Shown: piece after piece, positions 6,201 through 64,000 of the stretch
Position numbering within the stretch: the stretch's first letter is position 1
Layout of the letters: each line of letters opens with the position of its first letter
From: Vermamoeba vermiformis
Taxonomy: Eukaryota
NCBI GenBank assembly: GCA_045837725.1
Contig: JBEWZL010000124.1
Span: 186,001 to 250,000 of the forward strand
DNA length: 64,000 nucleotides
Direction: 5' to 3'
Notes under the pieces: model-generated
What the model was told of the DNA's origin: nothing
Database searches by the model: none
The model's input: only the letters and a program-made list of their open reading frames with translations
Translations under genes and position numbers: made by a program

Positions 6201-7747
6201 CCATCCACCATCGGAACGTTGGCCTTATTCCTCTAGTTGAATATAATACTGAAATTTGGGTGCCTAAAGCTTGTTAATTAAAGCCAAATTGTATTCGATA
6301 GAATTACCATTTGTAAATGTAAATAACCCACTGTACGCGCTATTTAAAGCAATTGAATCTGCCTCGATGACAGCCACATCTTTTGAATCGCCTTCCTACA
6401 ATAGCAAATTATTACAATACCAATTCATGGGCCAGACTTACATTCCAATAACGACCAACATGAGCTAAATACAGAGTCGCTGAATTTGGAAGCAAATCAA
6501 ACAGCGGTTGGATGTATGTTCTAAAATGTAATTAGACTGTAATTAAACTGGCACTTTTGTGGATAAACGTACGAGGGTACTTCTTCGAAATCGTCGCTCA
6601 AAAGCGTAGAAGTCGCAATATTTCCTTCTACATGCTCAAAATTGGGAGTTAATACCCGATATAATATCAAAGGCAATTTCAGCTCTGTTGATGACTTTTG
6701 GGCGCTAATCTACGACAAACTTTAATATTTCGAAATGACTAAATTACCTTACCTTCAGAGGATACTTCAACAGATAGCTATCTCCCGAGTCGTCAATAAA
6801 AGATGTAATGGTAATGTTGAAGGGCGCATAGCCGGAGAAATCGAGCTGGAGGGAATTATAATGTGATACTGAGGATATAAGGCTTACATTCACGGTTAAC
6901 GTCCAGTTGCACGGAAGACCAGCGATATTGCTTGTGCAGAGACTACCAACAATGCTTGTGACAGGAGGATCTGTGTTTGGCACAACTGTTGTAGGAGAGA
7001 GGACCGGTTGTGCAGGGCAATAACTTGGCCTCGGAGGCACATTGACGGGTGTGCCTGATGCCACTCCACTACCGGTAGTGTAGTTCATATAGCCCAAAAA
7101 CTAGGCGAGTCAGATTATTGTAGCCGTGAGATAAACGATAGTCACGTACCTCCATCAAGTAGTTTTGATAATTACCATCCATAAATCGGTTTGATATAAA
7201 CAAATATAAAAATGCGTTGTTAGGCAGCGTGTTCGCGTTGAAAGTGACTCGGAGAAAATCTCCGCGGCCATTGTTTGTAGCTGAATTTGGCTTGAAAACA
7301 TCGCCCGTTGCGGCATTTGTAAGGTACTAATTATTCGATTAATAAGCCGTATTTAATACACCTATAATTACTTACAACAGCGGCAGGTTTTCCAGTTGAA
7401 GCAGTGTTCAGATCAGTCAACAATGTCGCATAAGTCAATGCACCGCTCGCTGAATAGGCTGACAATAATTTTCGATAACCCGTCGAACGAAAATACCTAA
7501 TAGAAGTCATATTAGTACAATAAATTCGTAACTTCAAGCCGTAAACTTACTCTACATTTTGATTGAAAGTCAAATCAATATTAGTGGCTTGTGCAACGCT
7601 TAATACTGTTCCACTCGAAGGCGATACTGTAACTGATACGCAACCACTACCTACAGTATACGGCAATGATGGATTCGGCTGCGCTTCAACGAAGTAGAGC
7701 AGACCCAACGAAATTGCCGCTAGCAGCAACCATTTCTTCGCCACCAT
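3226..7747 (-). CDS. HAP2: Divergent HAP2/GCS1-like class II fusogen (fusexin), multi-exon, with signal peptide and C-terminal TM
   Basis: Spliced translation contains LWRLVPLSYFGGGCDKIDVSMADFYNQPNFCSSAYGTCMNYQLSYWMKD, matching the HAP2 signature C-x-KI-x-V...F-xx-Q-xx-xC...G-x-C-x-x-x-QL. It also has YPLKISAQKSSTELKLPLILYRV and Ig-like repeats before TM GVLIVIIVVGVAAVVVPVVIV. Exon joins near 5200-5280 are uncertain. Confidence 0.75.
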
Positions 7748-8393
7748 TATGCTATTAAGCTCGCTGAAATGTGTACTCCGTGCTATTAGATTGTTAAATT
7801 AAAAGCAATAGGCAAAAGTAACGTACCAATACTTTGGAAAACTCGTGGAAAACTCCGAATTCGCAACCAAACGTTCGGTCTCCCACTCACCGCGACATTT
7901 GTAAGGTTATCCAACATCAAATGAGAGAGAGACGAAACATTCCCTCGTGTAGCGCGGTTTTGAACGAGGCCACAAGCTTTTACTTGAGATCTTCAGTTTT
8001 GGGTACGCGTTTTCGTCATTTGTCAACCCTAAAGTCATTCGTTGTTGTAAATATTTATAATTTTAAGTTTAAGAATCTTCTTTCGCGCAAACGGGCCTTG
8101 AGACCCCGCCAAGAATTTTAAAAAAAAGAAATATAAAAATTAATGTTTACAAAATGCCAGAGTATAACTGGAATTAAATTCAAGGATCATTAATTTCATA
8201 ATTACTACTAATTTTAAGCATGATATATTTTAAATCCTTACTTGCTGTTATAAATGCGATCAAACGCAAGATCTTGTTCCTAGGAGACAAGATTTCCTTA
8301 CTTTTATACTCATTAGTAATGGAATAGGATGATAAAGTTGTATTGTGACTCTTGCTGCTATTAAGTGAAGCGATTATTTTATTTACAAAAATC

Positions 8394-28889: not shown

Positions 28890-31800
28890 TTATTTCGAAA
28901 CATCGTCTTCATTTAATTCAGCAGTAGGTTTTTGTGTGGTAAAATAAGACGATAAAGCCAAGTGATCAGAAGGCCATTGATAATGAGGCACTCCACCGAG
29001 TTGTTTGAGCAGATCCGGGCCAGGAAGTTCAACGACATGTGTTCGCGCCAGATCTTCCGTATAAAATATGTAATCCACCGTGCCTTTAAACACCTTGAAG
29101 TAACTCGTGAAATAAGGCTCTGACAATTCTTCAGTATTGTATTCTTCGTAAGCAGATCTGAACTTGAACGGATGTCGGATCACCATCTCATCACTACTAC
29201 TATTTTCTTCGCTACTACTACTATTAATACTACTTTGACTCTCGACACTATCACTCTCATCGCTGTCCAACAAATGAATTCTTTTTCTTGGCAGTCCTTC
29301 AATTTCTTGACTCGGTTTTCGTTTCAATCCAACGTTGACTTCTGATTGGTCAATTTTTACACCAGCATTTTGCTTGAGAATATTTCGTGCTGTTGCTCGT
29401 TCATCTAGCTCATCAGGCGTATAGAGACTAAGATCCAGACTTCCATTTCGAACAAACTGGTACAAGCCACTCGTCGGGGTGCTGTTGAAATCTAGCGAGA
29501 GATCGTTAGTGAGACTTGCCTTATTTGGAAATAAGTTGACGGACTTACCTCCGCACAAGATCGTGTTACGTAGACTAGGATTGAATTTTGCAAGTTGTAA
29601 CAAGACTTGCTTGATCTGCTTCATCTTAACATCGATGTACTTCATATAACAGACATTAATATGTATCATATATTAGGTTTTTCTATAAGAACTTACCTTC
29701 GGATTCCAATAAATGTGCGTTGTGGCAATGCAGATCTCTTCAGCCACGCTACTCGCGCGTGCCTTGGACTTCTCCTCACGGATCTGCCCTTTATAATTCT
29801 TGTTGCCATTGCTTGATGCCGCCGAGGACTGCTTCTTGATGCCATATAGAGTCCCGTAGAAGTTATTTTGATTGGTGTTTGTGTTGTTATTTACATGACT
29901 ATTCACATCCGTTGAACTTGACTCGCTGTCACTCAACGAAGATTCCTCGCTAGAAACGTTTGTATTTGTATTCGCAGCATCGATTGGCTGTAACATTGCA
30001 AATAACGCAATGCAGTCCTTCTTGTTCCGATCTGTTGCTAGTCCGCGACTGTAGCCTCGGAAGAATTCGTCCAATTTTTGCATGTCCGGATCGTTGTAAC
30101 TAAATTTGTTCAACTCTACTGACTCGGTCCTGACGACCTTAAACCTAAAACATAATTAGTATTTGTACTAAAAAGCATAGACAAGCTTGAACCAAGCGCA
30201 TCTGAGCTCGATCTACGTACTTTTGGTCTTGATAAAAAATTGCGCATCCATCAGTTCGACCTCGTGTTCGTTGCTTCCATAAGCCTTTGTAACCAACTAA
30301 AATACAAAAATTGTAAGCATAATAAGCCAAAAAAAGAGTGCTCTAGGCTGGGCTCGAACCAGCGACCCTGGCGTTATAAGCACCATGCTCTAACCAACTG
30401 AGCTACAAGGGCGAGTGATGCCAGCGCCTTAAACTAAGGCGTCTAGCGCCCAAAAAGGACGAACGCGGCTAAAGGCGATATCCGCCCTTCACCCAACACT
30501 TTGCCCAAAAAGACTAGTCTAGGACTTTTGTTCGGAAAATTGGTTGAGAAAAGCGAAGCTGTACAACTGGGCCAGATCTTCACGACGGAGAGACGTAAAG
30601 CGTGTTTGAACGCAATCTTCTCCTCCTTCGACGCCAAGTAAGGCAGCTTTCCTCCTACTGACCTTTTTTTCATAAGGATCGAAACAATCAGACAGAATGC
30701 TTTGGAGGCCGTGGCAGCGATGCTCAACTTGAAGACAGCCACTGGAGCCGATCTATTTTATATCACAAATATTTTTTTTTTTTCCCTTACATCAGTACTA
30801 TTCAAACTACTTTAACCATGAATTTTCGTCAAACTTTTTCGGCTAAAATGGGAAGCCCCACGTGACAACACTTACTTGACTTGAACCGTACATAGAAAAG
30901 TATCTTATTTTTTCACGTTATCAGATGAAAGCTTTACTATTCACTTATATTTTATCGTTGCTGCTGCTATTCGTGCAGGCTTCATTCATAATTGAAAGCA
31001 TCGGTTGCAACGCATCCACACCGTTTGTACAAGCCGATGTACGAGTATATAATGGCAATTGCTTTCCAGAAAAATTTGGTTGGAAATTAATTGAGTGCGG
31101 TGAAGATGAAGCAATCGAATCGATGTGCGATAATTCCCAATGCACTCAAGGCTGCCTACAAAAACAAGTATACCAGCTCAATAAATGCAAGGATAATGTC
31201 TACACGATGTGCACAAAAAGCTTTCCAAACATCACCAAATTAACTGGAAATCCTGGTCCCTACGTTGTCTCAAAAAGCTTTAACGAAGAGTACCATGCGG
31301 GTTGTGAAGCAAAGTACGCGGAAACGACGTACTACGACTTGACCGGCGTATGTCGCAAGTATCTACAAAGCAAGTCGTACTTTTTATCGTGCGATCCGAA
31401 CGACGCGCTAGAGTGGTTGTTCGAAAAGAACACTGTTTGTCAGGGAGCAGTTACTGAATTACTCACAACCCGATTTAGCTGCACTCCTACCTCGTTTGTA
31501 ACGTGCGAATATTATCCTTAATAAATACACGAACTTAAAAAAAAAAAGTTGGCTGAGATCGAATCCGCATCTGATGGTCGCGGCGACAAAACGATATTCT
31601 ACCAACTGAACCACAGGGGCACCCAAAAAAATTATTGCTGCTTAATCTGCTGAACACGAGCAAAAAAGTAATGAGGGCGACGTGATTCGAACACGCAACC
31701 ATCGGACCTGGAATCCGCCGCTCTACCGTTGGAGCTACGCCCCCTCAGTTGAACGCCCAGTAAGCGGCTCTAAGGAAGTCGTCAAAAAGAACAAAGCCCT

Positions 31801-32762
31801 GGGCTGACACGAAGCAGCTCGCGAGCCCGAACATTTTGACACGCCCAAAAAAAAATGTAGTTGAGTGTAAAATTACACCACGAACTTGTAGCAAGCGCAC
31901 GATATCCCAACGATTGAGAAGCAAAAAAGAAAAAAAAGAGGAATCCGACCTGCCGGAATCGAACCAGCGACCTAAGGATTGATGCTTCACTACAGTCCTC
32001 CGCTCTACCGACTGAGCTAAGGTCGGTTTGATGACCGCGGCCTTCGCTGGTCCGTCGGGGCGACAGGACGGAGGAGCACAACTCAGGAACACCCCGGCAG
32101 TCCCGGATAGTCCCAGTCCGGATCCCCAGGATTGCAAGAGCTTGGCGTGCGCACTAATTCTCTCCTGAACAGTTGCACAACTAGCCCCTCAATATGGATA
32201 CGGCTTGACAAGTAACCGTCAAGGTAAACTCACGACCTCAGTCGGTAGAGCATAGGCAACGTTGTGTATGGATAGCATTTGAAGTAACTTACGTGTTTCC
32301 AAATTGTTCTTGAACCAAGCGTAATCCTCGAGCTCTTGCATGCATATAATGTCGGGTGTCTTGTCTTGAATAGCGTTGAGAATGAGTTTCCTTCGATACG
32401 GCCATTTCAAAGCAGGGTACGGGCAGTATGGATAGAACGAATAATTGATGTACGAATCAGCAAGGACATTCCAAGTCATTAAGCTGAAGTTGGTGCCTTG
32501 ACACGATCGGGTCAGTACGTTCATTAAAAATTTAATTCGTTTACGTACCAACAGTCTGCATCGTTCCTTCATCGTGCATCATTTTATTATTTTTGCATTC
32601 CATAATTTTTAAAGGAAAGCAAATTTCTGACGTTTGTTGGTGTCGTTGCGCTGAGATCGAGATCGACCTTGTGGATCCATTATTTGACGATGATCGAACG
32701 TGTAAATATGTACAAGTTGATGATTTTCGACAATAGCCACGAGCGAAGTACTTGCAAATCAT
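28890..32762 (-). CDS. CCCH zinc finger plus EEP (Angel/CCR4-like) phosphodiesterase; 2-kb intron 30297-32292
   Basis: N-terminal CKYFARGYCRKSSTCTYLH; motifs TWNVLA, ICMQE, DGCAIFY, ATTHIYW, CGDFNS, VDYIFY, PSDHLAL. Splicing 32293 to 30296 joins in frame as LETLGYKG. Confidence 0.85.
30339..30412 (-). tRNA. tRNA-Ile (TAT), intronless, inside host-gene intron
   Basis: Cloverleaf with anticodon arm TGGTG-CTTATAA-CGCCA, A and B boxes and an oligo-T terminator. Acceptor stem has C3:A70 and T6:T67 mismatches. Confidence 0.9.
30925..31521 (+). CDS. Secreted Cys-rich protein nested antisense in the EEP gene intron
   Basis: Intronless 198-aa ORF with signal peptide and two Cys-rich halves; AATAAA at the stop. 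Confidence 0.75.
   Translation: MKALLFTYILSLLLLFVQASFIIESIGCNASTPFVQADVRVYNGNCFPEKFGWKLIECGEDEAIESMCDNSQCTQGCLQKQVYQLNKCKDNVYTMCTKSFPNITKLTGNPGPYVVSKSFNEEYHAGCEAKYAETTYYDLTGVCRKYLQSKSYFLSCDPNDALEWLFEKNTVCQGAVTELLTTRFSCTPTSFVTCEYYP
31548..31620 (-). pseudogene. Degenerate tRNA-like element (possible GTC/Asp anticodon)
   Basis: GCCCCTG-TGGTTCAGTTGGTAGAAT (intact A box/D arm), TTCGA-containing B-box-like loop and T11 terminator. The 3' acceptor strand is missing. Confidence 0.55.
31672..31744 (-). tRNA. tRNA-Trp (CCA) with G27:A43 mismatch
   Basis: Acceptor GGGGGCG/CGCCCTC, anticodon arm GCGGA-TTCCAGG-TCCGA, T arm GCGTG-TTCGAAT-CACGT, T6 terminator. Confidence 0.9.
31944..32026 (-). tRNA. tRNA-Tyr (GTA) with 10-nt canonical intron (31980-31989)
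   Basis: C1-G72 acceptor CCGACCT/AGGTCGG; GAGGA-CTGTAG-[TGAAGCATCA]-ATCCTT; oligo-T terminator. Confidence 0.95.
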
Positions 32763-34455: not shown

Positions 34456-37092
34456 CTAAATTCTAGAGTCCACAAACGTATGTACAATGAACTTCAACAC
34501 TTTGTCGAGATGTGTTGCGCCCGGTAGTTCGCTGAGATCGAGCGAGATCATCGCTCCACCTTCGCTTGTTTCGAAGACATTGAAGCATATATCGCACTGC
34601 TGCACGCTATATAACACGTCGATAGTGCTATCGGGTAAATGGGGTTAGATCTCGGTATTCGGATTCAAAAAATTTGTTGTCTCGCAAGGTTGTCACAAGA
34701 AGATTTGATTTAAAATGTAAATAAATTGTGTGAGTTCGATATTCAAAGAAAATAATAGGATAAAAGACCTTATACGATAATAAAACGCTAAACTTACATG
34801 AAAGTGTTTGAGTACGGGAACACGACACGAGATGCCTTCTTTTTGACGAGATCTTTGCTGATCCAGTTGCAGACCTCGCTACAAATCTTATTCATAAACG
34901 CATCGCTCAATTTTTGCAGTACGTGGTTGCATAATTCTTCCGCTGTTTCAAAAATAGTGACTTCATCAATTCGAATTTCAGTGCCGTCCAACAGCACCTT
35001 CATCGAAAAACTTTATATGAATAGTTAGTATACCATATCTATATTCATATTAGATAGGTTATTAATGATATTCTTACTCGTTCAAATACTTGAGCTCGAA
35101 TTCGGAGATAAATTCCTGGTCGCTCTTTTTGTCCTCAGTCGTCCAATGCAAACGCAACGGCGTCAAATTATCGCACATTCTATGCACCCTCTCGTTGATC
35201 TGATAACGCAGCTTATAGTGCTTGACTAAGGTAAGCAACTGGTCGAGCATCGTGTCTTCTTTTTTCCTAGGGATCGAGATCCGTCAGTACACAAGTAACT
35301 AGATCGAGTTCATTTTGTAACGTACTTCTCATCTGTTCGCAAAAAGTCCTTAATAAATTTAGGCCTATGATCTTCTTTCTCTTTTTCCACGTGTTTGTTT
35401 CGTAGAAATTCTTGTAGCTTAATGTAGATCAGCGAGTATAACGTATCAGCTTGCAGTTTGCTAAGCGATATATCATTCGACTCCATATCGATACGCTCTT
35501 TCGGCTAAGCGTAATTATCGTAAGTTAAAATTGTGATCCAATTACACAAAATTTGCCGCTTAATTAACTTACTAATTGTGCGTGTTCAGGTGAATCAAAG
35601 ACAATAGTAAACGACTCTTCGTGTTCTGTAGTCTCGAGTTTGATTTCATTCTCGAATATTTGTAGCAATGACTTTTTACATTTTTGAGCGTCTCTCGAGA
35701 TCTGTTTTTAGGGTTAGTTTTGCACCGCTGGATCCGGACAAAAGATGTTACCTGTCTAAATAATTCATTAAACCATAGTGTCCGCTGCGCTTGTACAAGC
35801 AAATTATGGCACTCGTGGACTCCCCGTGCCTTTTCAATGGTCTCATCATCCACGCTATCTTCGCTCATGCTGTGATCTGCTTCACAACGTCATTAAGCAC
35901 ATAAGTCTTATAATAGTAATCTTACCATCGAGTTCATCAACGTTATCTATTGACGTGAAGTTAGACATCTCGACATAAGCCGAGGTTGAAGTCACAGCGA
36001 ATTGTTTCGTGACCAATGAACGCGGCAGCGTCAACTCGACATCACCTGTCTCCTCGTTGATTTCAAGCGGCAATTCTCGCGCTCGAACCGAAGAACCATC
36101 TACACGGGCGTTAGTAAAATATCGATATAGTGAAAGCACTGCGTACCATTGAAGTAAGTAAAATCGACTGAAAACTTGGGTTGGTAACGATTGACATTTT
36201 GAGGTGGAGCTGTAATCTTCCATTCTTTTCTTAGTTGCATTACTGAGTCAAAATAATTATTTTCTTTTTGTACGCTGATTCGTAATTCTTCAGCAGCTTG
36301 TGCGAGCTTGACTGCGCTCTTTTTGAGTTGCTGTAAGGCGTGGAAAATTTAGTACTAGGAATGCTTATTATAGGCACTTATACCTTTTGTTTGCTTCCTA
36401 ATTCATAGACCTTCTCGTTCATAATAACTTTAGGCATTTGCGGTGGTCTCATAATGCCAATCAAGCCCACGTGTTCACCCTTCAACAGCAGATCCAACAA
36501 AGCTACGAGTTGTTCCATTTCACCTCGTGCACGTCTAAAAATAAGATAAATATTCATGTATGGTTTCAATAAGGATTTTTTCGACGATTGAAAAAATTTA
36601 ACAGATCTGACTTACGTTATGCTGTCATTGACTTTTGACCAAACCCACTCATTTTGATTCTTATTTTTATTTTCCTCTTTTTCTTTCTTTTTCTTGCTCT
36701 TTTTAGAAAAATCTATCGTCCGAACAAGTTCCATAAACTGATCTTCATAAGTTTTCTCCCTAATCATTTAAAAAATTAAGATTATAATTTATATTAAATC
36801 AATAAATACTATATGGTTTGATATTGACAATATAACTGAATGTGTAAATAGCTCCAGGATTTTTTTCAATTATTTTGAAAGCAATTTTTTGACGGATGGC
36901 TTACTCTTCATAATTTTCTCCTCCATCGTCCCCATAAAATTCTACTTTTCGTTCGGGAAGTGTTTCAATTGCAATTTTTAATTTCTTAAATGGAGGCTCT
37001 TGAATCCCGTCCATCTGATCATGTCCATTAACACCATTCTTCGAGTCATGGTCATGATTGAGCACACCGTTGTGCTCTCGCTTTATACTCAT
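34456..37092 (-). CDS. MED17: Mediator complex subunit 17-like
   Basis: Spliced: ...RARGEMEQLVALLDLL...KQKQLKKSAVKLAQAAEEL...YFDSVMQLRKEWKI...LVQAQRTLWFNELFRQISRDA. Confidence 0.7.
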
Positions 37093-37270: not shown

Positions 37271-37279
37271 TTTCCCGCC
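37271..37279 (+). promoter_or_regulatory. E2F-type motif TTTCCCGCC in the MED17/DNMT1 divergent promoter
   Basis: Matches TTTSSCGC about 100 bp upstream of the DNMT1 ATG; short motif, function inferred. Confidence 0.35.
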
Positions 37280-37371: not shown

Positions 37372-40300
37372 ATGTCGAAAAAACTAAAGAAGGGTAAGGC
37401 ATCGCAGATCCAAGGCAGTGAATCCGATCGAGCGAATGATTATTGACACTACACGAATATTTATGCATACATAAATTCGCCAATAAATATTCTATAATAT
37501 TAACAACCATAATTACGCATAAAACATTAATTTTTGACTCATTGTAACGAATATATTTAGGCCAAGACACCGAAGAAGACTTAGCCTTGAGCTTTTGGTT
37601 CGCTGAAGAGCACGAAAAACAAGAAGAGGAATTATTAGATAAATTAATAATTGAAACGAATAATGATCAAGTCAGCGATTTTGAGAATCCAGCTCAACCC
37701 GAGTGGCTTTTAGACGAGTTCGTTATTTATCAATCACACGACCACGCTGTAAGTTTTAATCGATTAATATTACATTTAGTATTATATTAATATGAAACGC
37801 ACGCTAGATCTTTAACTTGGAGCAATTGTCATTCGCGGATGCGATTATCGCCGCATCAGGCACAGTAAAGCTTCTGCCTCGTGAATTTAGCGACGACGAT
37901 GACGAAGAAGAGATCGAACGATACAGAGAACGCGAGAGAAATTTTGAACCCTTCCGCGTTCAATTAGGCCGTATTGCTCAATGGAGTGTTTCTTACGATA
38001 TTGCTTCATCTGCGAAGACCAACATTTGGATCCGCACTGAATTTTGCTGGTACAGATTAGGCCAACCTCTTGAACAATACGCCGAGGTACGTACACGTAT
38101 TCTACTCCTATATGAGTTGGTCTTAACAATACAATGTAGCAATACTTCCCCTTACAAATCAAATCGCAATTGTGCTCGAAGGTCATCGCACTTCTCGGTA
38201 ACAATCCTGGAGCTACTTTTGAGGACTTTGTCAAAGAGGTATGTCAGAACCATCTCCGGATCTGGTAGCTAAGATTAACTAACCGCCCATCGTATTAGAT
38301 TACCGCTGTTGAAGAAGCAGACGATGATGACGACGATGTTTGGGAGAGCAATGCTTTGACCTTCACGGAAGATGACTTGGTCGAACACGCCGAGTTCATT
38401 TTGCAACAAGTACGTAACGGATCCAGCTGCAATTGAATCATTATTACGAGTTACTAACGCGATGTTAACGTGCCACAGATTGACAGTCTCGCTGCCGAGC
38501 ATGATAACGCCGAGTTATGGTTGTCTCCTTTCTTCCAAGAGTTGGTAAGTTCTTGATCCGAATCCGGTGCTTGCAAGCGTTGGAGAAGCAAATGGATGGT
38601 TTAGTGTTCATTCCTGGTGGAAGTAGTGACCCGAACACGATGTTGCAGTCGCTCTCGGGCACGACCACACTAACAAGAATGCACCGCTTCCCGTCCGATC
38701 AGCGAAGTTAAGCTTGTTCAGGCCTTCTTAGTACTGGGGTAGGAGACTACCTGGGAATCGGAGGTGTTGTGCTCTTCTCTTTTTTGCTTTTTGCCTCTTA
38801 TCGCACAAGCCTGATAGAAAGCCTTGCGAATAAGCTCCGGCGAAAGTGGATCTCGCATCTAATATTTTTGATCTAGAACGTTCGTCTCGAAGCGAAGAAG
38901 AAGCTGCCTAACAAGAAGCTTGCTGGCAAGTCTCAACTCCGAGCCAATCAGACCAAGGGTAAGCCATTCAGCCGCTTTATTTATTTTGGCCTATTTTGTC
39001 TCGCAAAATCAACGCCAATTTTTTGCTCGCGAGCTGCTCCTTCATTCTAATTATCGCAATCTACGATAACACCATGGCGTATCTAACTAATACATTGGTT
39101 AGCCACAACCACCCCGCTCGTTTACTCGATCTGGAAGGGCTTCTGGGCTAAAACACTTGCCTTCAATAGAAAAGCTATCAAGAACAAGGCTGTACCCAAG
39201 AAAGCTGCTAAACCGAAGAAAGGTCTTGCTGAGAAGTCTAAACTCTTCGAGTATGTATTTTTAAATATTTTATTTGATTTTATTTTTAATTTTGGATGTG
39301 ATCTGCAGAGATCGTAAGCTCAATATCCAATGGATCGGCGCACCTGTCAAGACCGAAACTACTGACAAGGGCAAGAGAACGTATTACAAGTCCGTTTACG
39401 TTAACAACACCAAGTAAGTCAAAACTCAATCCGCTGTTGGATTGTCAGTTCCCAGACTAACGCGTTATAGATACGAGGTTGGTGAGGCCGTCTATGTTCA
39501 ATCACCTACAGAAGGTGAAGACGAATTCATTGCCATCATTACTTCGTTGTGGCGTCAAGGAGAGGACAACTTGTTCCACGCTCTTTGGTTCTGCAAATCC
39601 AAGGACACTGTTCTCGGTGATTCCGGTTCCGAGCATGAGGTAAGAATAATAGACACGTTATATACCTAAGTAGATCCGATACTTATGTTTCGCAGCTTTT
39701 CTTGACCGATCTCTGCGACAACAACTATTTGGAAGCCTTGATCGGCAAGCCCGACCGTCTCGTCTACGTTAAACCTGATGAACCTACTCCTGACTTTGGA
39801 GAGAGCCCTGATTCATATTTCTTCCGCTTGTTCTATCACCAAGGCAAGGTCTGCTTTACAAATCCGCCGTACCAAATGGATTGCACTACTGGCGACTGCC
39901 CTGTTTGCAAGGTAAGAATAAGGATAAATATAAACTCAACCCTGTTGTCCCGCCTACATTGTTCCATATACGATGATCGGCTCATATCAGCAGGGAATAT
40001 TTCAATACAAAGTTTGCTACGCGAACTCGATCTAATTTTTTCTTGAACTAGCATAAAGAGACTTCCAAGCCTACTGCTGTTCCTGTTGGCGAGCCTATCA
40101 AGGAAGACGGAAAGTACAAGCTATACGATGCCTTCCAATACAATGGCGTTACTTACCGAGTGAACGACACCATCTACTTGGATCCGTCTGAAGTCGATAC
40201 TGTTACTATTGCCGAAGATGACGCTCCTGTTGTCCGCTCTGACAAGAAGAAAAAGAAGAAGAAGGAAGAAAGCGATAAGAGTCCTTCTAAGACCATCGAC

Positions 40301-43300
40301 TCGTTCTTCAAACCTGTTGCTAAATCCAGCAACAAAGATGACGACCAAAGCGCTACTAGCGAAGAGTCTAGCTCTGAATCCTCTGATGATGAAGACGTTG
40401 AGGAAGAAGACGATGATATGGACGAAGATGAAGACGAGGACAAGCCCAAGAAAAAGAGCGGCAAATCCACCAAAGGTAGTCGTTACTGGTGCCAAAGCTA
40501 AGCCTAAACCTGCTGCTACTGAGTCGCCTGCCAAAGAAGCTGTTAAGGAAGAGGTCGTTAAGACTGAAGGTGCTCCCGCTGCCGCATCTGCTACAAACGG
40601 AACTGCATCCGAACCGATCAAGGTCGAAGGTGCTGTTGAAGAGGCTGGCACTAAGAAGAAGCAGCAACGCATTTATGTTCGCCCCGATGAAGACGAAGGC
40701 TGGCGTATTCGATACCCCAAAGCTTTGGCTGCAGACAAGGCTTTCAGAAAACGCATCTACAACTTGAATCCGTACTACGTGGCTCGTATTCTCAAGATTG
40801 CCGGACGCCGTAATAGCAACTCGATTAAGATCCACGTTCAGTTGTTCTATAGATTGAAGCAAGTCAAGGGCAAGAAAGCTTTGGGTTCTGATCGCGAGAT
40901 CTTCTACACCGAGTAAGTAGCTCTCCTTTACGGCGCTTAAATTGCTCAAATTATTATCTGCGCTTAATTAACCATATCTATTAGGCGCGAAGAGGTTTTG
41001 AAGGCCAGCGTCGTCAAGGGCAAGTGCGTCGTCCGCCATTACAAATCGATCGTGAAAGGCCAAGAAGACAAAGAAGAGGCCCTGAATAATCATAGAAGCA
41101 AGGACCATCACTACTACTTCCGCGAAGGCTTCGTCATTAAGACTAAAGAGTTTTTCGATGCTCCTGTGCCTCAAGCGGATGGCTCAGAAGATCTTATGGA
41201 ACAGATCAAGCTTCAAGCCAAACAAACCGTGACTCCTCTCAGAACCATGGACTTGTTCTCTGGATGCGGGGGTCTATCTACAGGTAATTACATCATTCCT
41301 TTAACGCACATCCACAACAATTTACGATTAATATGATGCTTAATCAACCCATTGGGACACCTTAAGAGTAGTAGTTGGCCTAATCAACCGGCTGCTCATG
41401 ATAAAAAAGGGAACTGAACATTAATCAACCCTCTATCTAACTTAAGCAATTTATTCTCGGAAACAATTTTTAACCACATCCGCTTCGTTTAGGTCTCGAA
41501 CAGTCCGGCGTTTCAAAGACTTATTGGGCCGTAGAAAAGGATACTGAAGCCTCTGAATCGTGCCACCGTAACCACGAAGGCTGCAAGGTCTACAACAACG
41601 ACATTAACGAGCTGCTCAAGCGCATTATCAGCGGAGATCCGACTTTGCCCAAAAAAGGTGAAGTCGACATGATCGTCGGAGGTCCTCCGTGCCAAGGCTT
41701 TAGCGGTCTGAATCGTTTCCAAGAACGCACTAAGGGCGAAGAAACCATCAATGCTTTGGTCGTGACGTACCTCTCGTTCATCGATCACTTCAAGCCTCGC
41801 TTTGCGGTCATGGAGAACGTCAAGGGCTTGCTGTCCACAGCCAAGGGCAGTGTCTGCGCATTGATCTTGAGCACGTTGATTGCTATCGGATATCAAGTCC
41901 GATTAGGCATTCTCAATGCCGGTCAGTTCGGCTTGCCGCAAAGTCGAGTCAGACTTATCGTGATGGCCTCTAAGGTCGGCGATGTCTTGCCCGAGTTCCC
42001 CGTGCCCACCCACTCCTTCATCATTCAAGGCGCACGCTTCCGTGAAATTCCCGTGGCCTTGGGCAAAAGCGGCGCTCAAAGCGCACCGGGCGTTTTGACC
42101 ACGACGCGCATGGCTTTGTCCGACTTGCCGCCAATCGAGTATGGCGCTAAATTGTCTCAGGGCCTGTCTTATGCCACCGAACCTCCTTCGGACTTTGCCC
42201 GTGAATTACGAGGCAAAGAAACAGAGGTAACCAATCACATCACGAGAGACTTGGACGCGTTGAACTTTACGCGCATCAGTTCGATTCCTCGCGAGAAGCC
42301 TGGTGTCGATTGGCGTTCACTGCCGGACCACTTGATTCCTTGGTGCTTGCCCAACACTGCCGACCGACACAACGATTGGCGTGGCCTCTATGGTCGTTTG
42401 GACTGGGACGGTACGTTTACCTCGCCATATATTATCTTATAAATGATAACTAATAACTTCTATTAGCCTATTGGAAGACGGTGCTGTGCAATCCAAACTA
42501 CTTCCGTCACGCGGTTATTCATCCGAATCAAGACAGGTAAGCGCTCAAATTTTGTCGTTGATATGGTGGAGTTACTGAGGTTTGGGTCTACAATGATTAT
42601 TGAACCCACTATTGGTCCGTGTTAATGAATTTAAATGATTCAGAAGTGATAATGAACATAGATCCAACTCAACAAAAAAAACAATTTTTTTCTTTCAAAT
42701 TTAACGCTAATCTTAATTTCTTTATAATAGAGTCGTATCTGTGCGTGAGTGCGCTCGAGCTCAAGGTTTCCCCGATGACTTCCGTTTCTTGGGCAAGATC
42801 TTCGCTCAGTACAAACAAGTCGGTAACGCCGTGCCGCCACCCTTGGCCAGAGCTATCGGCAAAGAAGTCAAGAAAGCCATGATCCAAGCTGAAGAACAGA
42901 AGCCTTTCCCTGTCGTTATCAAGACTACCACTGAGACCCCTGCTCCAATGCACGTGGATCAAGATCACGTGACTAACGGCAAAGAAGAGAGCTCTGAGAA
43001 GAAGACCAAGACTAAGGAGAAGAAGAGCAAGGGCAAGAAAGAAAATATCTTTGGTGCCTCGAACGGCGATGACTTGTCCAACAACTCCGACGAGAACACC
43101 TCTGACAAGGAGAATCACGCGAGCAATAAGAGCAAGAAGGCTAGCTCGAGCCAAGACGAGAAGAAAGGCACGAAGCGAAAGCGCGAGTCAGGTGAAGAGG
43201 CCAGCGACGATGACGTGCAGTTGACACGTGTCACTAAGAAAGCGAAAGTTGCTGCCAGCGGTGACAAGAAAGAGAAAAAGAAGCACAAGAAGAAGAAAGC

Positions 43301-43343
43301 CAACAAAGAGAGTATTTTTGCGACTGGCAACAACGATATGTAA
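37372..43343 (+). CDS. DNMT1: DNMT1/MET1-type C5 cytosine DNA methyltransferase (RFTS-like, BAH1, BAH2, MTase); apparent +1 frameshift near 40472
   Basis: Motifs [86 protein letters not shown] and RFTS-like exons upstream. Confidence 0.93.
38657..38775 (+). rRNA. 5S rRNA gene inside DNMT1 intron 38545-38876
   Basis: 119 nt; terminal helix GGGCACGAC/GTTGTGCTC; CCCGTCCGATC, box A (AGTTAAGC), TTAGTACTG, CCTGGGAA; T-run terminator. Confidence 0.95.
41326..41426 (+). ncRNA. Box C/D snoRNA, U58/SNORD58-like, in DNMT1 intron 41284-41492
   Basis: 7-bp terminal stem GATTAAT/ATTAATC; box C ATGATGC (41333); box D CTGA (41414); C' ATGATA. Guide TTGGGACACCT (41352-41362) is complementary to conserved LSU AGGUGUCCUAA. 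Confidence 0.75.
42576..42671 (+). ncRNA. Box C/D snoRNA, U18/SNORD18-like, in DNMT1 intron 42537-42730
   Basis: External stem TGAGGTTTGGGTCTA/TAGATCCAACTCA; box C ATGATTA (42593). Guide TTGGTCCGTGTT (42612-42623) is complementary to conserved LSU AACACGGACCAA. D' and D both read ATGA. Confidence 0.8.
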
Positions 43344-45778: not shown

Positions 45779-46969
<1,191 letters not shown>

Positions 46970-55056: not shown

Positions 55057-58000
55057 ATGGATGAGAAGCAGATCGATGCCATTGTTTTTAATTATTTAAA
55101 AGCAAGGGGTTATGCAAATGCAGCTGGTCAGTTGAAGCAGGAATCCAGAATCCAGACGATCGAAGATCTCGCATCTCAACTGAAAGCAGAAAGTGATATT
55201 AGCTTACCAAATATAATTATGTTCCATAACAAACAAGAGAACACACCAAAGCGATATGACGAGAGTTACACAGCATTGAGAAACTGGGTTTTCTCATCCC
55301 TCGATATGTATAAAGTATGTGATCTTCAATCGTTTATTTTTAATTTTATAATCCTTCCAAAATTATGTATATGCTTAATATCATTACGGACATCATTTTT
55401 TACTATTTTTTATTGCCTCGTAATATTTATTTTAATTCTGATATTTTTAGGCCGAATTATTATCAGTATTATATCCTATTTTTGTACACTGCTACTTAGA
55501 CCTCGTAGAAAAAGGGCACTCGGAAGAAGGTAAATATTAATTTAATCAATAATGTAACGTGTAATACTCACATTCGACAGCCCGCCAATTTATGGCTGCA
55601 CACAAAGAAGATCACGAAGATAAATATGGAAATGAGATTAATAGGCTACAGGTAATTCATAAAAAATATTTATTATTTTTTTGGCGTCACGCTAGATATT
55701 TTGGAATATTTTTTTCGCTCGATCCAAAAAAACGGTCTAACGACATTGCTTATTTAGGCTATCACCACTGTCGATCATATGAAAGAAAACGAATTGGCGA
55801 ATTTATTCCGCAATAACAAATTCAATTTGAAGATGTGCAATTACAGTTTTGAATTATTGTTGAGTTATTTGCACGAAATGAAGTTTATGATGATTTTAAG
55901 TATCGTCAATCAATATCTCAATATTACAGGTACGTGATTAATATACACATCGAAAAGTCGTCTTTTAAACGATAACACTCGTGCTTCTAATATATTTAAT
56001 CATGGCTTACAACATTATTTCTGCTAGTTTTTGCCGGACAGCCGCAACAAATGCCCGAAATAGAATTCAAAGCAATTAGCGGATACACTGAAGAGTCTAT
56101 TCGGTCCTTGCACAAAAAGGCTATTTACTGGGGCTTATTCGAAGAACAAAAACGGCTACAGACATTGCCTGAGCCCGAGGAAGGCGACGAAAATGACGCT
56201 GAAGAGGGCGATGCAATGGACGTAGACGAGGCTGGTAAAGAGGGCAAAAAGAAAAAGGTACTTAGTCTCTTCGAGCACGTGACTTGCACGTGTCAACTAT
56301 CGCTTCTAGCGTTGATGTTAACGACGCGTTTTATTGTAGAAGAAAGAGCCTAAGAAGAAAAAGAAAGAAAAGAAGGCTGAGGGCGAAGAAGAAGAAAAAG
56401 ATCAAAAATCAGCGGTGCCTTTGCCAAGAGTGTACGTGACCCTTTTCACCGATCGTTGTGCTTGTGATTCTTATTGATTCATATTTTAGTTCTGACGATA
56501 TGGAGCAAGAGATTATGAATGACTTAAAGAACCGCGTACCAATCAGCGCATCGAATTTGCCTTCAGTGGCGTTTTACACTTTCTTCAACACTTACGGAGC
56601 GTACGTACATCACTAAATGAATTATAGCAATGAATATAATTAACGCGGTACTAGCATGAACACATTGGCGTTGAATCAAGAAGGCAGTTTGGTCGCCACT
56701 GGCCACGCAGACTCGTCCATTAAAGTGTGGGACTTGTCGAAAGACAATTCTAAATGGGTCAAGAGCACGAAGGAGTACTTCGAAGGAGATAGTAAGTGAA
56801 CACAACAAGTACATATTCGCCTGCTGGCGCTTTCCTTTTTGACCGGTCTTGGTTGGCGTCGTTTTTCGACTCCAACAAGCTTCCATAGCTCAGTCGGCAG
56901 AGCGTTCGGCTGTTAACCGAAAGGTCCCTGGTTCGAACCCAGGTGGGAGCGAATTTTTTTTTGGCTTGCTCGCCCCTCTTCGGCGAACGCCTGATGTTCT
57001 TTTGCATCAGTCTTGCTTACTTTTTATTAGATCGAGACAACCGTTACAAAAACTATCGCGATCGTGCATATAAAGAAGACGATGCCGCGTTCCAATCGGA
57101 TCTTGTCGGTCATACTGGTCCCGTCTACGGTCTTGACTTCTCCCCTGAGGGGCAGTTCTTGTTGAGCGGTGGTCAAGACGGTACTGTAAGACTTTGGAGC
57201 ATGAACACCAAGACCAATTTGGTTGCTTATAATGGTAAGGAAGATCGCGCGTACGTTAGTATTTGCTAGTCACTCACAGTTCACACAAGGTCACAATTAT
57301 CCTATTTGGAACGTAAAGTTCTCTTCTCTGGGCTTCTACTTTGCCACTGCCTCATACGATCGCACAGCTCGCTTGTACTCGACGAATCAGATCTGGCCTT
57401 TGCGAGTATTCGCTGGACATTTGAGCGACGTTAATGTAAGTGTAGACTGTGAAGCTGTTCTTTATTAATACTTGCATGTAGGTCGTTGACTTCCATCCCA
57501 ACTGCAATTACGTTGCTACCGGCTCGAGCGACAAGAGCGTTCGATTCTGGGACATCAACACGGGCATGTGCACGCGCGTCTTCACAGGACACTTTGGCTC
57601 TATCTACAGCTTAGGTGTCTCACCGGAGGGTCGATTGCTCGCCTCAGCTGGTGAAGACAAAGACGTCTTGTTGTGGGACATTGCCTCAGGCACGAAGGTG
57701 TCCACTTTGAGAGTAAGTTTGGCACGCGAGAAGTAGCAACTTACAGAGCCGTTGCTAACGATATTTTCAGGCTCACACAAACACTGTTTGGTCAATCAAG
57801 TTCTCAAGCGAAGGTAATATCTTGGCCTCAGCTGGTGCCGATGAGACAGTTTGTTTGTGGGACATTAGAAACCCAAGCGTGCCACTCGACACCCAAGCAA
57901 TGTAAGTTCAACAGCTATTAGGGATCTACGTAATAGCAGCGTACTAACGCAATACATAGTGCCTCGTTGAAGCCTACTCTGTTGGGCAAGTACCCCACGA

Positions 58001-62367: not shown

Positions 62368-64000
62368 ATGGAAAATACTGCTCATTCAAACACTCGTGCG
62401 CAGCATCTAGCGAGTTTTATGCAGCGAGCCACTGCTTACATAGAGGAGGCAAAGAAGCATGAAAGGGAGGAGAAATTTGACGGAGCCATTAGTAATTATA
62501 ATAACGCAGTCGATTTATTGGAGATTATTCGAAAGAGTAAGTGAAACACGAATTGTCGGATTTACAAGGCACCACCTAATTTTATTTTATGGAAAAAATA
62601 TCGGGTTAATAATATTAACACGTAAATCAGACAAAAAATTACCCAATGTTCCAAACGGAAATTTTTGAAATTTTCATAAAATCGGATCTGACCAAATTTT
62701 AGATGAGGCAGACGTCACTAAGGCTACGGAGCTTCAAACTCAAATAGACCACATCAAATTTAGACTGGCTCAGCTTGACGGTGTCAAAGAATTAAATTCA
62801 GACTTACTAGCCCCGCTCGCAAGCCTCCCGAACACCTCAGGATCTGGTAATTTCCTAATTACCACATAATATATTTTAAATTTATAAAGCGCCGCATTAT
62901 TTAGCAGGCGCCGCCCTCTATACATTTTACTAATATTTAGGTATGTAGACGCAAATGTCTCGTTCCAAGTGGTGTACGAAAGTCGCGGTGTGCAATGCTT
63001 TTTGATCGAAAGTTTCAACGAAGGCAATGAAATTAAGCGAACGGATTTAGCTTCAAATTCGCACTTGGTCATATTAAAACAATCGTAAGTAACAATTATT
63101 GCTACCACTAATCAAAAAGCAATGTGGGATCGGATAACTTACTTTTTACCTTTTTTAGTAACGGACCACTTGGCATCCTTAAAGTCGAAGGAGTAATGGA
63201 TTACCCGTTAACTTCACAAGTCCCGTGCCTCAGCAGCGGCCCTGGCAGATACACTTTCGCATTGCCAATGCAGAACACATTCTTAGGCCTCACTATCACG
63301 TACGACTTTATTATCAAACACCTTACAAAAACTAACGTGCGGTTTACTGCAGAGCCGATGAAAGGAGTATTAAATTGTTCGAATCGATCGTGAGTGACCT
63401 CTGTGTGTTTAAGAAAGTCGTCGATCAGAGCGCTACAACGGACGTGATGGACAACAAGAAAGTCCAAGTAAGGGATATCAATTATTTGAATATACAAACT
63501 ACAGTTATTAACATCTTTCTGTTGCAGATTCGTGAATTGTCTAAGACTGAAAAGGTCGTTAACGCGATTGAAGTCGGTGGAGGTGTGGTGGCACGTGGCA
63601 TTCAATCAGGCGCCTCGTACTTGAAGTCATGGATCGAACAGTAAGTAGGACACATCGAAAGTATACTTTGAACTTATTCATAACGATGTGTCTGTTAGGG
63701 GAGGCAAATATTTGACGAGCAATATCCAGCCTAATGCTGAGCCGTCAAAAGTGCCAGAAGGTGTCAAGACAGGTGTCAACGTCGTGTCAAAAATTTCACC
63801 GGTCGCCGTACAAAGTAAGAACTCTTATTTCATCATTAACGTCGAGCTTAATATTCATATAATGTATTGTTTAGTTTCTACTGCCGCTGTTGAAGGTCTC
63901 GGTTATATTGCCTCGAAAGTTGGTGGCGCAATTCTTTCTTCTCTACCAGCACCTGACGTAAGTGTTATTGCACGTGCTTTTGTCTTTGCAACAATTTTGC
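62368..64000 (+). CDS. SPART: Spartin-like protein (MIT domain plus senescence domain), 3' truncated
   Basis: MIT ATAYIEEAKKHE...AISNYNNAVDLL; YPL...P motif; senescence-domain helices AIEVGGGVVARGI...IQPNAEPSKVP. Confidence 0.8.

Follow-up and report, generated by a model that had tools for sequence, protein, structure and literature searches.

A 5S rRNA gene and two candidate box C/D snoRNAs in the three longest introns of a DNMT1-type gene of Vermamoeba vermiformis

The window analysed here is a stretch of 64 kb (64,000 nucleotides) from Vermamoeba vermiformis (assembly GCA_045837725.1, contig JBEWZL010000124.1, positions 186,001 to 250,000, forward strand), and counts made over both of its strands cover 128 kb. 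It contains a gene for a DNMT1-type DNA methyltransferase at 37372..43343 on the plus strand, which starts with an ATG at 37372, ends with a stop at 43343 and comprises 16 exons and 15 introns. Each of its three longest introns holds an RNA element in the sense orientation: intron 6 a complete 5S ribosomal RNA (rRNA) gene, and introns 13 and 15 one box C/D element each. It is probable that this DNMT1 gene carries three RNA genes, namely a 5S gene that forms a nested unit of RNA polymerase III (Pol III), a small nucleolar RNA (snoRNA) of the U18 type and a second box C/D snoRNA.

The gene model was built from stop-to-stop frames combined with a search for in-phase GT..AG pairs. Pfam searches with the exon pieces find DNMT1-RFD in exon 3 (40.4 bits, cut-off 22), DNA_methylase in exons 14 and 16 (113.1 and 51.3 bits) and BAH in three exon pieces (21.3, 28.6 and 19.7 bits), each of the latter staying under the whole-protein cut-off of 30.8 because the introns split the domains. 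A protein search with exon 14 gave, among the matches listed, a single close relative, P0001, which is 96% identical across the query. This protein of 1410 amino acids comes from a transcript-type contig of 4.3 kb and contains PF12047 (RFD), PF01426 (BAH) and PF00145 (methylase). It aligns colinearly along the exons between 37563 and 43340, an interval that spans all three element-bearing introns, and 1278 of the 1417 aligned columns are identical. The remaining DNMT1 matches listed are 34–41% identical and belong to beetles, land plants and other animals, with none named as a fungus. The gene is of the DNMT1 type, as judged from the predicted combination of an RFD, a pair of BAH domains and, at the C-terminus, a C5 methylase in a single protein, and the host is indeed the DNA methyltransferase that had been named in the original prediction.

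From the first intron to the fifteenth, the predicted lengths are 167, 59, 53, 60, 69, 332, 144, 58, 57, 56, 140, 72, 209, 56 and 194 nt. Contigs of run X6, which is labelled only by guess as RNA and whose source organism differs by 1–3% from the window, skip 13 of the 15 introns exactly, all with GT..AG ends and with the three element-bearing introns included; the skip lengths repeat the last 13 values of the series, from 53 nt (intron 3) to 194 nt (intron 15). No splice joint for introns 1 and 2 was found among the X6 contigs. Splicing of intron 10 (56 nt) is also seen in raw RNA reads under the window's species label, with two reads in run X21 and one in X23. Nine of the 15 introns are 53–72 nt long, and the longest three (194, 209 and 332 nt) are the hosts of the RNA elements, which would explain why these introns run three to six times the usual length. 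The initial claim that three introns of this gene hold a complete 5S and two box C/D elements stands, with the addition that all three introns are cleanly skipped in X6.

Two irregularities were observed in the host gene. The frame of the coding sequence slips by one base at 40470, where the sequence as it stands (4246 nt) runs into a stop after codon 644. The X6 contig is one base shorter at this position, and omission of the base gives a coding sequence of 4245 nt, or 1414 codons, with no internal stop; the shift comes from a mistake in the assembly or is genuine in this strain. At 39911, four X21 reads exit exon 11 at the splice site into letters that resemble exon 12 and are not identical to it, as would come from an RNA-seq strain that differs from the window or from a paralogue.

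Intron 6 (38545..38876, plus strand, 332 nt) is bounded by GTAAGT..TAG and is in phase. It hosts the 5S rRNA gene at 38657..38775 (plus strand), which is the only 5S reported when the whole window was searched with Rfam at its gathering thresholds and matches RF00001 over model positions 1–120 of 120 with 104.7 bits (E 6.6e-22; gathering score 38). The distance of the gene to the 5' splice site is 112 nt, and to the 3' splice site 101 nt. It is preceded by a motif at 38626..38647 (plus strand), composed of GTGACCCGAACAC at 38626–38638 and GTTGCA at 38642–38647, which is a candidate Pol III promoter element. Five nt past the 3' end of the 5S follow two T runs, TTTTTT and then TTTTT (38780..38792, plus strand), which are a candidate Pol III terminator.

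Reads of the three RNA runs show that the 5S sequence is not confined to this place. Many reads depart into other flanks at 38654–38660 and at 38776–38794, which points to several 5S genes with different surroundings and to an origin of most reads from other copies. Reads of these other copies share the 3' flank as far as 38784 or 38794 and then diverge. On the upstream side, two loose-end read consensuses, compared with the window by eye, retain GTGACCCGA.CA at the position of 38626–38638, and one of them also has GTTGCA; the intervening letters differ. It can be inferred that the upstream motif shared by the 5S copies is a promoter element. Among read-depth bins about 200 nt wide over the whole gene, the two that hold the 5S reach a depth of about 3–12 per strand class in the three runs, and most DNMT1 bins are at 0. 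No variants at 10% or more were reported within 38657–38775 in the reads of these runs, so this copy shares the sequence of the expressed population. The most economical account of the intronic 5S, in view of its own flanking signals, is that of a self-contained Pol III gene nested in an intron of an RNA polymerase II (Pol II) gene and belonging to a dispersed family. Such a copy would be transcribed independently by Pol III from its internal promoter and the upstream motif and would stop at the T run; its location inside DNMT1 would be a case of nesting, with an output independent of the host transcript.

Some RNA reads carry 19–25 A's after the 3' end of the 5S (38773–38776) and are joined there to a second 5S piece. 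They represent oligoadenylated 5S molecules or library chimeras.

Intron 15 (42537..42730, plus strand, 194 nt) lies between methylase motifs and holds a U18-like box C/D snoRNA candidate of 86 nt at 42582..42667 (plus strand). The element consists of a 5' stem (42582–90), the C box ATGATTA (42593–99), the guide (42612–23), the D' box ATGA (42625–28), the C' box ATGATTC (42635–41), the D box ATGA (42652–55) and a 3' stem (42659–67), the two arms forming a terminal stem of 9 bp with one G-U. The Rfam model snoU18 (RF01159) matches intron 15 with 27.9 bits (E 0.53 in 8 kb and 0.013 for the intron alone), and the runner-up is the Plasmodium snoR30 (RF01605) with 19.3 bits. The 12-nt guide is identical to the snoU18 consensus, and 21 of 22 letters match over the guide, the D' box and the next five letters (AUUGGUCCGUGUU-AUGAAUUU).

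The guide forms 12 Watson-Crick pairs with the large-subunit (LSU) rRNA segment AACACGGACCAA. Of 110 eukaryotic LSU loci, 87 contain this segment unaltered, and a further 6 have a version with one letter changed, to which the guide pairs with a G-U; the 110 loci were taken from metagenomes by means of the complement of the LR3 primer, a fetch pattern that already holds 7 of the 12 target letters, so that the independent part of the match is the 5-nt extension. The A of ACACGG in the target is opposite the fifth nucleotide upstream of D', which is the +5 spacing of a methylation guide. A box-adjacent duplex of 12 bp free of G-U occurs only this once in the window on both strands. The site corresponds to yeast Am649, human Am1313, Arabidopsis Am647 and Dictyostelium Am844 (PMC8817022, Table 1). 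On these sequence comparisons the assignment of the intron 15 candidate to U18 is solid, and the D' guide would target the A in LSU ..AAC[A]CGG.. (A649/A1313/A844) for 2'-O-methylation.

The boxes of the intron 15 element depart from the consensus in a regular way. In both C/D and C'/D', position 6 carries U for G and D position 1 carries A for C, and the tandem GA is retained in ATGATTA and ATGA. In stem II of the kink-turn (k-turn), C-box position 6 pairs with D-box position 1, and the paired G6->U and C1->A changes consequently keep the base pair. Two independent double changes of this type argue for a working k-turn over a relic, the box consensus, the sheared G-A pairs and the k-turn and stem nomenclature being those of PMC8413462. 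The doubly compensated variant would thereby provide a natural test of stem II pairing in the k-turn.

The 12-mer AATGATTATTGA at 42592–42603, which holds the U18-like C box, recurs at 37435–37446 in intron 1 (167 nt), where a D box and a stem were looked for without success and an Rfam search of 37380–37570 gave nothing relevant. A box-adjacent complement on the minus strand at 62541–62552 was set aside, having no C/D boxes nearby.

Intron 13 (41284..41492, plus strand, 209 nt) follows just after methylase motif I and contains the second box C/D snoRNA candidate, of 101 nt, at 41326..41426 (plus strand). Its parts are a 5' stem (41326–32), the C box ATGATGC (41333–39), an antisense element (41352–62), a predicted hairpin (41366–97), the C' box ATGATAA (41398–404), the D box CTGA (41414–17) and a 3' stem (41420–26). 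The terminal stem has 7 bp, the C box is near-canonical and the D box canonical. Canonical C/D frames with a stem of at least 7 bp occur twice in the window, compared with a mean of 0.25 in 20 block shuffles (128 kb). The folding prediction retains the terminal stem and places the hairpin 41366–41397 between the D'-like region and the C'-like ATGATAA, a layout that fits an internal k-turn with its own stem I.

The antisense element 41352–41362 pairs with the LSU segment AGGTGTCCTAA over 11 bp, 10 of them Watson-Crick and one G-U. Of the 10 loci with the LSU P-loop motif, 8 contain this segment letter for letter, an off-site eleventh match in locus L012 being left out of the count, and the segment lies about 30 nt 3' of the P loop. 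In all 10 loci, the G opposite C41358 follows the second G of the P-loop GGGG on the 3' side at a distance of 32 nt. In human, Gm4198 is guided by SNORD58A (PMC9616492) and lies 32 nt after Gm4166; in Dictyostelium, Gm2984 (guided by CD5) likewise lies 32 nt after Gm2952, and Gm4166 and Gm2952 are the same site as yeast Gm2619 (PMC8817022, Table 1). By distance arithmetic only, the AGGTGTCCTAA segment would hold the human SNORD58 and the Dictyostelium CD5 sites. The first antisense element of the putative intron 13 snoRNA most likely pairs with AGGTGTCCTAA, and the 2'-O-methyl would then be expected within LSU AGGTGTCC, at the T or the G of AGG[T][G]TCC.

When the guide region of intron 13 was run with RNAduplex on 16 long LSU loci, the best site differed from locus to locus and no further conserved target emerged, and for the D guides (9–10 nt) of both box C/D elements no conserved rRNA complement was found in the LSU loci. 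A 10-bp complement of 41359–68 to CTCTTAAGGT was dismissed as being at chance level and without a fitting box. The other canonical frame of the window, at 7666–7764 (plus strand; ATGATGG..CTGA, 8-bp stem), looks like coding sequence.

The terminal stems and the complementarities of 11–12 nt to conserved LSU segments are therefore present as the original prediction had described them, and its labels for the two elements fared unequally. The name U18-like is backed by the guide, the +5 spacing and an Rfam match, albeit a weak one that falls under the gathering score. The name U58-like is backed by the 11-bp duplex at the SNORD58 site, as placed by arithmetic, and lacks an Rfam match to SNORD58 at E≤10 as well as a CUGA-like D' box at the right distance.

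Between the end of the box C/D element and the 3' splice site there are 66 nt in intron 13 and 63 nt in intron 15. A distance of 63–66 nt would suit snoRNAs that are freed by debranching of the excised intron and trimming, a preferred distance between snoRNA and 3' splice site being known from mammalian work. For the intron 15 snoRNA this would mean debranching of the spliced intron and trimming by exonucleases, and the intron 13 snoRNA would be made by the same route. Both snoRNAs, if made, would be co-produced with the DNMT1 pre-mRNA. The release of snoRNAs from excised introns and the dependence of intronic snoRNAs on host transcription are described in PMC11028025. The proposed co-production with DNMT1 is accordingly to be expected from position for the two snoRNA candidates and does not extend to the 5S, which has Pol III-like signals of its own.

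Several points weigh against reading the three elements as functional RNA genes of the kinds named. The C and D boxes of the intron 15 element are non-canonical, and its snoU18 score of 27.9 bits misses the Rfam cut-off, a gathering score of 47. The LSU targets were read in metagenomic loci and not in the organism's own LSU rRNA, which adds to the partial overlap of the fetch pattern with the U18 target. For the 209-nt intron 13 alone, Rfam gave no snoRNA families at E≤10 and two irrelevant weak matches. The 128 kb contain 378 stretches that can pair over 11 bp with a conserved rRNA 11-mer and no more than one G-U, one per 339 nt, so the guide match of intron 13 alone is not significant. The box slot at +5 for the AGGTGTCCTAA duplex is occupied by TAAG at 41363, which is not CUGA-like, and AAGA at 41364 would set the G at +6, with the preceding T at +5; degenerate D' boxes are common in eukaryotes (PMC8413462). 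A competing complementarity is formed by 41386–96, adjoining ATGA, with AGTAGCTGGTT (2 G-U), a segment present in 65 of 110 loci and, as a variant, in 6 others. The distance arithmetic also takes the methylated P-loop G to be the second G, presumably by equivalence with E. coli G2251. Table 1 of PMC8817022 gives Dictyostelium Gm2984 without a listed human equivalent. As to the 5S, position 38777 is mostly T in the reads (13/17, 10/12, 16/16, 11/13, 3/4 and 4/8) and C in the window, and reads with the window's C amount to 0/16 to 4/8 per run and strand class; the 5S reads come mostly from other copies, and transcription of this copy itself is only inferred. Finally, the three RNA runs of the species are of the poly(A) type and barely cover DNMT1, and the two snoRNAs are predicted from the sequence.

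These points lend themselves to other explanations of the box C/D elements. The intron 13 element may be a real box C/D RNA that is no counterpart of U58 or CD5 and serves another site, such as the A of AGT[A]GCTGG through 41386–96 and the ATGA at 41398, or is an orphan. The lack of a matching Rfam snoRNA family and of a proper D' box beside the first duplex would agree with this, as would the D-like ATGA at +5 of the 41386–96 duplex, its retention in 65 plus 6 of 110 loci and the count of only 10 box-adjacent duplexes (at least 11 bp, at most 2 G-U, at least 30 loci) in 128 kb; a fungal survey reports that some box C/D snoRNAs, a minority, are orphans and that targets have been switched (PMC5824354). 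However, 41386–97 is the 3' arm of the predicted hairpin and the ATGA begins the C'-like ATGATAA, the gap from D' to D would be 12 nt with no room for a C' box, and methylation at AGT[A]GCTGG is unlisted in the four species of PMC8817022, Table 1, which leaves this reading possible and yet unlikely. It is very unlikely that one or both elements are chance look-alikes or dead relics. The non-canonical boxes of intron 15, the commonness of duplexes like that of intron 13 and the coding-like appearance of the other canonical frame (7666–7764) would speak for such an origin, but intron 15 combines the 12-bp guide, the +5 spacing, the 9-bp stem and two compensatory changes with an intron of three times the usual length, and the intron 13 frame, expected 0.25 times per 128 kb, is in sense, in an over-long intron and with the customary spacing to the 3' splice site.

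For the 5S and for the co-location of the three elements, there are other accounts as well. The 5S of intron 6 may be a silent or decaying passenger, with any 5S-like RNA made only as part of the DNMT1 pre-mRNA; the 3'-flank reads mostly have the other copies' letter at 38777 and none can be assigned for certain to this copy. Yet the gene is of full length, scores 104.7 bits, does not differ from the expressed population at the 10% level and keeps the upstream motif and the T run common to other copies, and some reads carry C at 38777, so that this account is decidedly unlikely. The assembly of three RNAs in DNMT1 for co-regulation with a proliferation-linked, E2F-driven methyltransferase is highly improbable. 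It could draw on the presence of three ribosome-related RNA genes in one gene, all in sense, on the host-dependence of intronic snoRNAs (PMC11028025) and on an E2F-like octamer, TTTCCCGC at 37271..37278 (plus strand), 94 nt upstream of the ATG, which had been offered as a regulatory clue. The octamer is present, but it is one of 10 in the window, where 9.52 would be expected, and a count of 10 or more is reached in 51 of 100 shuffles; its count is at chance and the site carries no weight. Moreover, a promoter-like motif and a candidate terminator belong to the 5S itself, the three RNA runs that contain 5S reads have almost none from DNMT1, and several snoRNAs across the introns of one host are the norm according to PMC11028025. 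Hardly credible at all is the further idea that DNMT1 is a dedicated carrier of ribosome-biogenesis RNAs, in which DNA methylation and ribosome production would be mechanically coupled at the locus, the two guides would depend on DNMT1 transcription, and the sense 5S gene would modulate or be modulated by the passage of Pol II. The same slight probability has to be shared with a variant in which the frameshift at 40470 truly exists in the sequenced strain and the gene persists as a snoRNA host with no coding role. The observation behind a coupling of DNA methylation and ribosome biogenesis is the co-location, and nothing else.

Preferred over these is a DNMT1 gene with a nested Pol III 5S gene, a U18-type snoRNA and a second box C/D snoRNA in its three longest introns. 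For a microbial eukaryote that is unannotated, the annotation would gain one 5S gene and two probable guides for methylation, the U18-type guide addressing one of the most widely conserved LSU sites.

Other introns of the gene are also longer than usual. Introns 7 (38959–39102, 144 nt) and 11 (39912–40051, 140 nt) are over-long and fold with z-scores of -3.45 and -3.62, 1 of 200 shuffles in each case being as good; intron 11 contains a hairpin with an 8-bp stem at about 39940–39995. An Rfam search of 38950–40060, which covers both introns, gave nothing relevant. They may hold further non-coding RNAs, as the folding predictions suggest. Just upstream of DNMT1, a weak SNORD96 match is found at 36562–36645 (plus strand; 22.9 bits against 43, E 1.2). 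Elsewhere in the window, Pol III genes are scattered among protein genes. There are four transfer RNA (tRNA) genes, of which Ile-TAT, Trp-CCA and Thr-AGT are clustered at 30338–32026 (minus strand), with a 13-nt intron in Thr-AGT, and tRNA-Asn lies at 56879–56951 (plus strand). An actin open reading frame without introns is located at 45779–46969 (plus strand).

The intron 15 candidate resembles U18/SNORD18/snR18 (CD24 in Dictyostelium) in its box C/D layout, D' guide, LSU site and +5 distance, and is intron-encoded like the U18 of vertebrates and yeast. It differs from the family in its boxes, with ATGATTA as the C box and ATGA as D' and D in place of RUGAUGA and CUGA, and in its host, which is a DNA methyltransferase here, whereas U18 is hosted by RPL4 in vertebrates and snR18 by EFB1 in yeast. 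In Dictyostelium, the box C/D genes are intergenic except for one (PMC8817022). The antisense element of intron 13 pairs with the LSU segment that, by its distance from the P loop, would hold the sites of human SNORD58 (28S Gm4198) and Dictyostelium CD5 (26S Gm2984), and the element differs from both in having no Rfam snoRNA match and no recognisable D' box.

The 5S of intron 6 is comparable to the dispersed 5S genes of Yarrowia (PMC2911113), being likewise a complete 5S gene with candidate flanking signals of its own and away from any ribosomal DNA unit. The MIR in Polr3e is an example of a Pol III unit lying within a Pol II intron (PMC5358760); here the nested unit is instead a 5S gene, in sense, inside DNMT1. 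A literature search for 5S genes inside introns found none in a DNMT1 intron and nothing directly comparable.

Intron-encoded snoRNAs and nested Pol III genes are both of known kinds, so the mechanism proposed for this locus is ordinary and the host is unusual. According to PMC11028025, snoRNA hosts are mostly genes for the ribosome, translation and RNA processing, and range over many functions, with non-coding hosts among them. The emphasis of the original prediction on an unusual host is thus justified in that DNMT1 is not a translation gene, and it amounts to no new principle. With one snoRNA per intron and several introns in use, DNMT1 is similar to multi-snoRNA host genes, from which it differs in a function related to chromatin and not to translation or ribosome assembly.

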